NCBI RefSeq assembly: GCF_011745625.1 | Contig: NW_027191471.1 | Coordinates: 310,001 to 374,000 of the forward strand | Reading direction: 5' to 3' | Length of the DNA: 64,000 nt | DNA from: Cladosporium halotolerans | Taxonomy: Eukaryota | Part shown: positions 52,452 to 55,058 of the stretch, in pieces | Numbering within the stretch: the first letter of the stretch is position 1 | Layout: each line of letters starts with the position of its first letter | The notes under the pieces: generated by a model | What the model was told of the DNA's origin: nothing | The model's input: only the letters and a program-made list of their open reading frames with translations | The model's database searches: none | Translations under genes and position numbers: made by a program

Positions 52452-53149
52452 TGGCAAAGGGGTGGTTATAGATATTGCAACGATGAATACAAAAGATATT
52501 TCAACTACTTCAAAATTTTCAAATGCTGCTTCGCAGCACGCGAAATGCAAGATTGAGCTGGGGCCCCCGTCCAATTGTTTCGGAGAAACTCCACCTCGAG
52601 TAGTTTGAACTATTGCGGAATGACTTGGTCAATATCAGTCCAATGGAGCCCCCAATTAGCGCCTGAGAGTCATCTGCTTTCTTGAATACCTAAGCACAGG
52701 TCGACAAGTCCAGAACTTCGTGTGTCGACCTTCAAGGCATCAAACCACACAGACACTCGGGGTTGCAAGGGTTAGGGTTGCTTCTGGGCTCATCATCACG
52801 AGCTCACAGGAGGACAGCCACGCGCAAGGATGCGGAAAGACAGAAGGCTGATCAGAGCCCTGATCTTCCTTTGAAGGCTGCTTCAGCATCTATGACCTCG
52901 AGTCTCACAAAACATCGTTCACGTGTGCCATCTGCCCATGCTCGAGTCTTCACATGCCGTCACAAGCACAGGCGTGGCCATTGAGAGGGACAACAAACGC
53001 AATGACAATGGATTTGAAAGTTCACATCTTATTCATTCTAATTGACTAACTCTAGCACATGTCGAGAAGCACGTGAAGATCCTACAGGCACGTCAGCAAC
53101 CGTAAACGTGACAACATGTCGGGTTGAAGCATGTGAAGGGACGGTGATT

Positions 53150-53292
53150 TCAGGTCTCCAAGGTGATTGGATTTTTCGTCAACGTGTACACTCCCCTCCT
53201 CTCAAGCCTCACTTCACGAATGAGGTGTGCTTGAGCGGAAAGGGAAGCGCGAGTCTCGGTAAGAACACAGCGAAATATTTGTTGTTCATCAT
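53150..53292 (-). ncRNA. Box C/D snoRNA, U55/SNORD55-like guide plus a 5.8S guide
   Basis: C box ATGATGA, D box CTGA. CACCTTGGAGAC is antisense to LSU GUCUCCAAGGUG. D' guide TTTCGCTGTGTTCTT is antisense to 5.8S AAGAACGCAGCGAAA (one G-U pair). Confidence 0.85.
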
Positions 53293-53494
53293 TTGAGCAG
53301 TGCGAAGCAGAGATGAAGACGTACCATTGATTGAATGGCTATGCTAATATGGACGGCTGCCCCAACGCAGAACCTCATGCAAATAGAAAAGATGCCGTCT
53401 AGGAACTGCAATTCATGGAGGAGTATATATCTGCTTGGATCGTTAGCAAAGCTCTTCGCTATTATTGGATTGCCTCGCGCCAGACTGATCAACT

Positions 53495-53564
53495 TCAGAG
53501 ATTTTGATTTTCGTTTGTGTTTGTAATTCTTCACTGAAGTTGCAGCAGAAAGGGTTGACATCAT
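53495..53564 (-). ncRNA. Box C/D snoRNA, unassigned family, predicted 25S target near U2717 (yeast numbering)
   Basis: C box ATGATGT, D box CTGA, 13-nt guide GAAAATCAAAATC antisense to 25S GAUUUUGAUUUUC; intronic position matches its neighbours. Confidence 0.75.
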
Positions 53565-53718
53565 GAGATGAAGTCGAGGCGGAGGAAAGGATAAGAGTAA
53601 CGTACCTTGACTTATTTATCACACGCAGGGAATCATCATCACGTAGGCCACTGGATATCTGTCAGTAAGACTTCCGAGAAGAAGATCCATAATCGACAAG
53701 ATAGTGCAAGCTCTGCAT

Positions 53719-53874
53719 TCAGGCTGGAATTTGGTCAGTAATTGTTCTCGTGAACTCGAAGATCTTCGGGACATACCTCATTAAATCAGAATTTTCAGTG
53801 TAATGTACGTTCATAACGGCCTACGGTCGTTTACACCGTAGGCCGTTCAAACAGTGTGAATAGTTGTTCATCAT
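53719..53874 (-). ncRNA. snR51: Box C/D snoRNA snR51, interrupted by nested intron 53724-53776
   Basis: C box 53868-53874. D' guide ATTCACACTG (25S Um2729). Spliced 3' end CTGATTTAATGAG|CCTGA (18S Am100). Terminal stem CTCTGCA/TGCAGAG. Position follows snR41-snR70. Confidence 0.88.
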
Positions 53875-53982
53875 TGCAGAGGCGGGAGGGCGTAGGGGAA
53901 ATTGATGCTAACCTATCGGCCGTTGTCAGTTATTTGCTTCAAGCGAATAGCACTTTCAAGGTTCGACAATGCAGGGCAAAGA

Positions 53983-54109
53983 TCAGTCGACGCTTTCTCA
54001 ACAATCAAGGCCCCGGCCGAACACCCACGAGGGTTTGTACGCCCTCGCTTTTTGCGAATGCCGACCGAAGACTTGGTCTGTCCGCCCGTTGCGTTGTAGG
54101 TCTCATCGT
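53983..54109 (-). ncRNA. snR70: Box C/D snoRNA snR70 (18S Cm1639)
   Basis: C box ACGATGA; ACGGGCGG-A-CAGA(D') is antisense to 18S CCGCCCGU with +5 on C1639; D box CTGA; lies between snR41 and snR51. Confidence 0.8.
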
Positions 54110-54215
54110 AGAAGGGGAAATGGTGTTGAGAGGAGGATAATGTACCTGAGAGGCTTGTTAGTGCTATGTTCGCAGAAACTATGCCAATGATATAATGGTG
54201 GTAAGAGCGTGTATG

Positions 54216-54299
54216 TCAGACAAGGCTGAAACTTAGTTTGACAACATTCAACATGATATATTCGTGTTCGAGGAATGCCATTTGTCACAATATCATCAA
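54216..54299 (-). ncRNA. snR41: Box C/D snoRNA snR41 (18S Gm1126)
   Basis: C box TTGATGA; 14-nt guide AAGTTTCAGCCTTG-T-CTGA antisense to 18S CAAGGCUGAAACUU with +5 on G1126. Confidence 0.88.
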
Positions 54300-54501
54300 T
54301 CGGAGGGGAAGGGTAGGAATGATATGAATCGGAATGTCGTACCTTTTACAACATGAGACGGTGTGATGGGACTGCAGAGTCCCGAGTACGAATGGTATCG
54401 CAGAAAAGAGATCATTGATCATGCATTCTACCTGAGATGTATTGTTAGCCTATGGCCTAATTCGTATGCACTGTTGCATAAAGATGAAAGACCACAAGTG
54501 G

Positions 54502-54574
54502 TCAGAGTAATTCTAGAGTTGTATAGTTCCTTCATGACGCTATAGGAATTGGATTGTTCGTGATATAACATCCT
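54502..54574 (-). ncRNA. Box C/D snoRNA, U45/SNORD45-like (18S site equivalent to human Am159)
   Basis: 3' end CTCTAGAATTACTCTGA antisense to 18S GUAAUUCUAGAG; degenerate C box AGGATGT; internal GAACAATCCAA antisense to LSU UUGGAUUGUUC. Confidence 0.8.
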
Positions 54575-55058
54575 TTGGTGGCCGTTTCGAGGGAAGGGAT
54601 GGGGTACCGTACCTGTTGGCGTGAATTGTCGCGAGAAATTAGTGCATGCTTTCCCGCGCATCGAAGCGCATGGCAGCTGCCAACCACACGAAGACTTCAT
54701 CTCAGTCAATCTCTTCAAGCTCGAGTCGAAGAGAGTGCGTTGGCATTGCCATGGCTGTCGAATCAACGAGAAGCGTGATGGGAGAAAGACGTCTCGAATT
54801 TGAGGAAGAGAAATCTTATACCAAGCGGCGGCGTAAGCGGAGGTGCCGCCCGACTTTGCCAAGAGATTTGGTGAGAAGTGACTGCACGCGACCGCGTGAG
54901 GGGTTCGCGTCACGGCTCGACGCGACTTTCGGCTTGCCTTGGTGATGACGATTCGACCAAACAGAGAGTCGCCGCTCTGCACCACAACAGCTGCACCACA
55001 ACAGCTTTGGACCTATTGACTGAGGGACTTCAACAAGCACAAGGCCGCTGCATTCAGC

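Follow-up and report, generated by a model that had tools for sequence, protein, structure and literature searches.

How three box C/D snoRNAs are released from what appears in the spliced RNA to be one intron is the question raised by the minus strand of the window, the 64-kb stretch of DNA that was analysed. Two exons there are joined over 692 nt, and within those 692 nt two acceptor AGs are each followed at once by a GT. The original prediction held that the snR41, snR70 and snR51 introns are spliced out recursively and that the finished RNA shows a single apparent intron. The present analysis leads to much the same picture, in which three snoRNA introns lie end to end and are, with high probability, removed stepwise by recursive splicing through two zero-length exons. 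The phenomenon is already known and published for snoRNA cluster III in filamentous fungi, and the window is another instance of it. What the window adds is a quantitative view of conservation and of the weak internal donors.

The snoRNA host gene

Between 54790 and 52900 the minus strand is a row of short exons and six introns, with one box C/D snoRNA per intron. This row is best explained as a host gene, probably non-coding, for the fungal snoRNA 'cluster III', which joins snR41, snR70 and snR51 with additional snoRNA introns. A filamentous ascomycete is indicated by the matches to Rfam families derived from Aspergillus fumigatus and by intron B (described below). The longest ATG-started open reading frame in its spliced RNA of about 600 nt (ends approximate) encodes 86 aa, which falls inside the range of 159-267 bp given for Neurospora crassa host ORFs in the relevant part of PMC2780460.

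Four sequencing runs (X1 to X4), none of them recorded as RNA for this region, were compared with the window as assembled contigs, not reads. Run X4 behaves as RNA, with adapter loose ends and four minus-strand GT..AG joints; it derives from a related strain that is not demonstrably the window's own organism, its contigs being 90-99% alike to the window. No joints occur in X1 (probably DNA) or X3, and X2, whose kind was guessed, has one non-canonical joint only; all three look like DNA of related strains. The X2 contig concerned, at 53370-53520, skips 149 bases with non-canonical ends (AA..TG), for which a deletion in the strain or an artefact of assembly is a likelier cause than splicing.

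All features described below lie on the minus strand. Exon 1 of the host gene (54613..54765) is covered by X4 contig 26, which spans 54610-54765 joined to 54343-54428; the RNA contig reaches 54765 and the 5' end is approximate. The joint removes intron A (54432..54612; GTACGG...GCTAAC...CAG), skipping 181 bases (cut +3, GT..AG). Intron A contains a box C/D snoRNA at about 54502-54573, with box D at 54505-54502 and the branch adenosine at 54445, 57 nt away. No Rfam family matched this snoRNA at E values up to 10. On the basis of position alone it is probably the U45-type snoRNA of the 'intron A' that appears in the cluster description of Luo and coworkers (PMC3596301).

Exon 2 (54343..54431, 89 nt) ends in AAAAG and lies in X4 contig 26 at a depth of 1908. 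The acceptor of intron A (CTCAG, at 54431-54432) also abuts a GT, since GTAGAA are the first bases of exon 2. This AG|GT is present in several relatives and absent in others, and exon 2 is retained in X4 RNA at high depth.

Intron I (54146..54342; donor GTACGA, branch adenosine 54158, acceptor CAG) holds an snR41-type snoRNA (Afu_455, 54214-54303) that scores 54.3 bits in Rfam against a gathering score of 48. Its 19-nt guide plus box D equals the Afu_455 consensus exactly, there is a weak Rfam snR41 match over the 3' guide and box D, and 58 nt separate its box D (54219-54216) from the branch downstream. Intron II (53913..54145; donor GTACAT, branch adenosine 53926, acceptor TAG) holds a box C/D snoRNA at about 53983-54109, whose C-box match begins at 54108 and whose box D (53986-53983) lies 57 nt before the branch. 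This snoRNA has no Rfam match at E values up to 10, and the name snR70 comes from published cluster order and position only. The outer intron III (53651..53912; donor GTTAGC, branch adenosine 53662, acceptor CAG), whose 3' end is taken from the X4 joint 53650|54343, carries snR51 in two parts.

Downstream, exon 3 (53606..53650, 45 nt) is delimited by the X4 joints 53650|54343 and 53430|53606. It contains a C-box-like GTGATGATGA and may be a stage toward exon loss or a snoRNA remnant. The next snoRNA intron (53431..53605; GTACGT...GCTAAC...CAG) corresponds to an X4 joint that skips 175 bases and encloses a box C/D snoRNA at about 53492-53569 with a weak Rfam match to snR61 (21.7 bits). A last snoRNA intron is predicted from its splice signals at 53082..53324, around Afu_294 (53147-53296; Rfam 47.2 bits against a gathering score of 43). 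Its splicing was not seen in X4, where contig 22 (depth 273) passes the donor at 53324 unspliced and runs to 53124.

Zero-length exons between the snoRNA introns

The two juxtapositions at the centre of the question were confirmed by script on the minus strand. Intron I ends with its CAG at 54146 and GTACAT starts at 54145 (...ACTAACAAGCCTCTCAG|GTACAT), and intron II ends with its TAG at 53913 and GTTAGC starts at 53912 (...ACTGACAACGGCCGATAG|GTTAGC). The first zero-length exon (54145..54146) is therefore the place where the acceptor G at 54146 adjoins the donor G at 54145, and the second (53912..53913) the place where the acceptor G at 53913 adjoins the donor G at 53912. The branch adenosines named in the original prediction (54158, 53926 and 53662) lie at the positions claimed, with their motifs recovered by script, and no other GT occurs between either internal donor and the next C box, where the original prediction had noted no better donor.

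The three abutting units are each provided with a separate branch site and share the internal spacings of an ordinary intron, and thus each is built like the gene's ordinary introns. From the donor to the start of the C-box match, which begins one base before the core, the six snoRNA introns measure 40, 44, 37, 39, 42 and 33 nt, close to the distances first proposed (36 and 38 nt for the internal donors, 32-43 nt for the others). From box D to the branch adenosine they measure 57, 58, 57, 57, 52 and 57 nt, with the acceptor following the branch by 11-13 nt in all six. In intron-encoded box C/D snoRNAs, box D typically lies about 50-70 nt upstream of the branch point. The introns of the window fit this rule, and for snR51 in related loci the distance is 52-71 nt.

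The bare motif is no evidence alone. In the 64-kb window, with both strands counted, CTRAY-N5-12-YAG|GT was found 5 times as compared with 4.35 +/- 1.95 times in 100 shuffles, a count that is not above chance. The context does exceed chance: three of the five sites are gathered inside about 520 nt of the snoRNA host gene, all on one strand, both internal AG|GT sites come 57-58 nt after a box D, and relatives keep the AG|GT more often than shuffled intervals contain it (figures below).

Splicing forms in RNA

The X4 contigs contain the final product. A joint at 54343|53650 with GT..AG ends skips 692 bases in a contig of depth 1025, which bears out the predicted apparent intron from 54342 to 53651. 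Further X4 joints remove 54612-54432 and 53605-53431, both ordinary introns, and contig 25 (depth 74.2) is unspliced from 54320 to 53885.

An intermediate is also present. The contig of exon 2 has a loose end of 26 letters at 54341 that equals window positions 53885-53910 at 23 of 26 letters, and the three mismatches coincide with the variants that X4 itself carries at 53897-53899. As GT opens both donors, the junction of this loose end is 54343|53912, so that exon 2 is joined at the second zero-length exon. In this form introns I and II are gone and intron III is present. Contig 24, in which intron III is retained and continues past the acceptor to exon 3, stops at 53914, having gone two letters (AG) past the donor; contig 25 begins at 53885, so that the two overlap by 30 letters. 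The ends of contigs 24 and 25 are read here as an assembly-graph fork just upstream of the shared AG, with spliced and unspliced forms both in the sample.

The intermediates that had been predicted are thus found in part: 54343|53912 occurs in X4, and 54343|54145 is not among the joints and loose ends listed. Neither 54343|54145 nor the reverse-order product 54146|53912 occurs among the X4 joints listed, a result that is uninformative either way as contigs drop rare forms. The form that lacks introns I and II could also arise directly from donor 54342 and acceptor 53913, and is no proof by itself that donor 54145 is used.

Published transcripts of the cluster come from other Euascomycetes. Among 42 ESTs reported in the cluster III account of Luo and coworkers (PMC3596301), 18 lack intron I, 14 lack introns I and II and 10 lack all three, with no other order given there. 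This order fits stepwise removal from 5' to 3'.

Conservation of the internal splice sites

Metagenome contigs were scanned with the 19-base snR41 guide plus box D, which gave 113 loci. The guide motif of the intron II snoRNA is common to 88 of these 113, lying within 260 nt, and these 88 loci reduce to 69 distinct intervals for the first junction. These intervals run from the box D of snR41 to the guide of snR70, and AG|GT occurs in 68 of the 69 as compared with 22.6% of shuffles. AGGT is found once in 65 intervals, twice in 2, three times in 1 and not at all in 1, the last being an unrelated chance match. The acceptors divide into TAG (33) and CAG (32), and GTA opens the donor in 64 of 65.

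The count at the second junction is based on those 59 of the 113 loci that possess the C box and 5' guide of snR51 (67 have at least 600 nt downstream), and these represent 54 distinct sequences. In 52 of the 54 an AGGT stands in the 100 nt that precede this C box, as compared with 21.0% of shuffles, and the remaining two have AG|GC at the same place. These two loci (L012 and L031) look like GC-AG donor variants; a close relative, L026, has AG|GT.

The sequence between the splice signals is highly diverged in the relatives. The GT behind each acceptor is kept while its flanks diverge, which indicates that the internal donors are under selection, and such selection speaks for internal donors that are real rather than for one donor paired with three acceptors. 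With the final join, one intermediate, the conserved AG|GT and the published ESTs, the proposal that the snR41, snR70 and snR51 introns are recursively spliced is supported. In 12 of 32 related clusters the acceptor of intron III also directly abuts a GT, making a third zero-length exon that is absent in the window.

These counts are anchored on snoRNA boxes and guides. They took the place of rule-based acceptor calls (the first AG to follow a CTRAY motif by 6 or 7 nt or more), which were dropped with 19 of 88 distinct segments uncalled and loci with an early AG mis-called. The 19 uncalled segments are chance matches, another lineage with the 19-mer in a different snoRNA context, or loci with non-CTRAY branches. 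In eight loci (L001, L002, L025, L054, L060, L086, L089 and L108) what comes after the 19-mer is another sequence, similar among these loci and ending in TCTGAGGG, with neither a branch nor an acceptor. These eight are probably another lineage in which the guide occupies the D' position of a longer snoRNA.

A stepwise model and the order of splicing

In the model that very probably applies here, two exons that once separated the three snoRNA introns would have been lost, leaving each acceptor AG abutting the next donor GT. Exon 2, with its AAAAG end, would be ligated at 54146/54145 and would thereby regenerate a donor, AAAAG|GTACAT. This donor would be spliced to the acceptor at 53913 and regenerate AAAAG|GTTAGC, which in turn would be spliced to the acceptor at 53651. 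Exon 2 would thus serve as the 5' exon for all three recursive steps, and each step would release one lariat whose single box C/D snoRNA sits 57-58 nt ahead of the branch point. Such a layout would let the snoRNP assemble and the snoRNA be trimmed from the debranched intron. The nested 53-nt intron in intron III would be removed first, joining the snR51 guide to its box D. Three parts of this scheme we infer: the separate lariats, the occurrence of the first intermediate in this organism, and an obligatory order.

The order may have a basis in the donors themselves. With one locus taken per 80%-identity cluster, G is present at position +5 in 11 of 51 donors at the first zero-length exon, 16 of 40 at the second and 1 of 12 at the third, as compared with 39 of 43 exon-flanked intron I donors and 30 of 32 donors of the nested intron B (Fisher p values of 1e-6 to 5e-12 for internal versus other donors). 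The window's own internal donors are weak in isolation, GTACAT being without G at +5 and GTTAGC having T at +3. The AAAAG end of exon 2 is kept, with A at -3 in 40, at -4 in 36 and at -5 in 34 of 43 clusters, and the rest of the exon is unconserved; positions -2 and -1 are fixed by construction in this comparison, where the intron I donor was taken to be the one AG|GT that precedes the C box by 25-65 nt, present in 57 of 58 distinct loci.

These patterns allow the tentative suggestion, which is somewhat less probable than its converse, that the 5'-to-3' order is written in the sequence, with the internal donors forming a distinct weak class of AG|GTA with degenerate positions +4 to +6. Such donors may be usable only after the A-rich exon end has replaced the pyrimidine-rich tail of the acceptor, and the exon end would act, for example, via exon contacts with the U5 snRNA. 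If true, this reading would explain the lack of reverse-order intermediates among the ESTs. No mention of the idea was found in Luo et al. (PMC3596301), the sole paper searched for it.

Alternative explanations

The EST pattern fits equally well with a scheme in which only the exon-flanked donor at 54342 works, paired with the acceptor at 54146, 53913 or 53651, so that the intermediates are alternative end products or dead ends. The text of Luo and coworkers on this point (PMC3596301) leaves the choice between stepwise splicing and alternative acceptor use open. Of the spliced forms, only the one without introns I and II and the final one are among the X4 joints and loose ends listed, each one step from donor 54342, and the weakness of the internal donors also agrees with such a scheme. 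Nothing in it, however, would keep a GT behind the acceptors, yet GT (mostly GTA) is found there in 68 of 69 distinct relatives at the first junction and 52 of 54 at the second, with GC in two more. A lariat holding two or three snoRNAs would moreover yield at most one of them by exonucleolytic trimming, and at a zero-length exon in a Schizosaccharomyces pombe snoRNA host the internal 5'-P and 3'-OH ends made by the spliceosome are known, as described in part of a preprint (10.1101/226894). Use of a single donor is accordingly improbable.

The final RNA with its one apparent 692-nt intron would also be produced if the segment from 54342 to 53651 left as a single large lariat, or if RNase III-type cuts separated the snoRNAs and the internal AG|GT sites were relics. 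Precedent for the latter exists in Saccharomyces cerevisiae, where the same three snoRNAs are obtained from an unspliced polycistron by endonuclease cuts. The intermediate that ends exactly at an internal site speaks against both versions, as do the separate branch motif of each unit, 57-58 nt from box D, and the splice signals that are kept in spacers that have otherwise diverged. The spacers hold no stable hairpin beyond those of shuffled sequences: they fold no better than shuffles (z = -0.91, +1.07 and -0.70), and thus nothing points to RNase III-type hairpins. We regard this explanation as very unlikely. Still less credible, to the point of being nearly negligible, is that the two juxtapositions are functionless coincidences; the bare motif is about as frequent as expected (5 in the window versus 4.35), but its position relative to the snoRNA boxes, its conservation in relatives and the RNA intermediate contradict chance.

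Relation to known systems

The closest counterpart is cluster III itself. In the sections of Luo et al. 2013 (PLoS One, PMC3596301) devoted to it, the snR41-snR70-snR51 intron-intron-intron structure is reported for all Euascomycetes examined, together with extra U45- and U55-associated introns in the cluster. The window agrees with that description in the two missing interior exons, the flanking snoRNA introns, the nested intron B and probably also the order of the snoRNAs and a non-coding host, and it has the same intermediate in which introns I and II are removed and III is retained. There is no essential difference, the exon after intron III being 45 nt in the window and reduced to AG|GT in the 12 of 32 related clusters mentioned above.

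Similar arrangements have been described in other lineages. The snoRNA polycistrons of the Candida clade and Debaryomyces hansenii likewise have zero- or one-base exons between snoRNA introns and non-coding hosts, and Donovan et al. 2016, in the portion that treats them (PMC5033589), term the zero-exon case recursive splicing and give an exon size of zero for D. hansenii snR41/snR70. These fungi belong to the Saccharomycotina lineage and, unlike the window, some Candida cases have overlapping ('negative-size') exons, where splicing of one intron creates the next site. Recursive and nested splicing in the Candida clade and D. hansenii is also the subject of Mitrovich et al. 2010, as represented in papers that cite it. 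In S. pombe, SPNCRNA.445 (the host of snoRNA 61) has a zero-length exon that was detected by spliceosome profiling and called recursive splicing in a 2018 preprint (bioRxiv 10.1101/226894, in the part concerned with this gene). As in the window, a 3' splice site adjoins a 5' splice site in an apparent single intron of a snoRNA host, and the arrangement is conserved in related species. The cluster and lineage differ, and internal catalysis was demonstrated there on spliceosome-bound RNA, whereas the window is known from assembled RNA contigs.

The zero-length exons show how exons can disappear from a gene with one snoRNA per intron while all its snoRNAs are still delivered. They represent an intermediate step, with the intronic arrangement found in most fungi on one side and, on the other, the polycistron of baker's yeast, which has no exons and is processed by nucleases. 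At the ratchet points of Drosophila and the recursive-splice sites of vertebrates an acceptor likewise lies beside a regenerated donor, and removal is stepwise from 5' to 3'; these sites occur in very long introns and have strong donors of the AG|GTAAGT type. The segments of the window, in contrast, are about 200 nt long with one snoRNA each, and their regenerated donors are weak.

A split snR51 and its nested intron

For annotation, the apparent 692-nt intron is really three introns and a nested one. The snR51 snoRNA had been taken to end at a CTGA near 53789, which proved wrong: the real box D is at 53722-53719, behind a nested intron (53776-53724) that is a feature absent from the earlier account. 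The 5' part of snR51 (53777..53878) consists of box C, the 5' guide, an internal hairpin and the 3' guide, which ends ...GATTTAATGAG at 53777. The nested intron B (53724..53776, 53 nt; GTATGT...ACTGAC...CAG) follows, sitting inside the snoRNA between the 3' guide and box D. The 3' part (53715..53723) carries the true box D (CTGA, 53722-53719), and the guide and CCTGA are joined once intron B is out.

Splicing of intron B is seen in X4, where a joint skips its 53 bases at a depth of 471.5; in the contig concerned, contig 24, intron B is gone and both ends of intron III are kept. With intron B removed, box D follows at the distance that the Rfam snR51 consensus gives, and the distance from the snR51 box D to the branch at 53662 is 57 nt only with the box D behind the nested intron. 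The unspliced sequence matches Rfam snR51 at 53878-53774 with 28.2 bits (E 1.8), below the gathering score of 44. In this alignment box C and both guides align and four consensus positions are absent just before box D. Thus the Rfam model scores under its threshold because snR51 is not contiguous in filamentous ascomycetes, and in these fungi the snoRNA is unfindable as one contiguous gene. The region 53784-53878 also has a weak Rfam snR67 match (E 0.47), in which ACACTGAAAATTCTGA equals the 3' end of the snR67 consensus; the snoRNA may hold a third guide-like element, or the CTGA may serve as a D' box.

An intron inserted in snR51 between guide and box D has already been published as 'intron B', as stated in the account of the cluster in PMC3596301. 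In Liu et al. 2009 (the entry in PMC2780460) the snR51 homologue of N. crassa is given a length of 76 nt and the label 'Exon', which fits a snoRNA annotated only up to the donor of the nested intron.

As in the stwintrons of Pezizomycotina (PMC8469720, in the part that defines them), the nested intron would have to be removed first. The inner intron of a stwintron breaks a splice signal of the outer one, whereas intron B interrupts the body of a snoRNA. Classification of intron B as a stwintron was rejected, since 135 nt separate it from the donor of the outer intron and 61 nt from that intron's branch adenosine.

Among the 54 distinct relatives, 41 have snR51 interrupted as in the window and 6 have an uninterrupted AATGAGCCTGA; of the rest, 4 are cut by a contig end or differ (one having the intron shifted by 3 nt) and 3 are without a guide match. 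The loci with contiguous AATGAGCCTGA and no nested intron (L007, L028, L030, L041, L055, L063 and L071) may belong to lineages that lie outside the group in which intron B was acquired, or at its base. In L021 the nested intron lies 3 nt further upstream (AAT|GTAAGT...CAG|GAGCCTGA) with the spliced snoRNA sequence unchanged, an apparent case of intron sliding.
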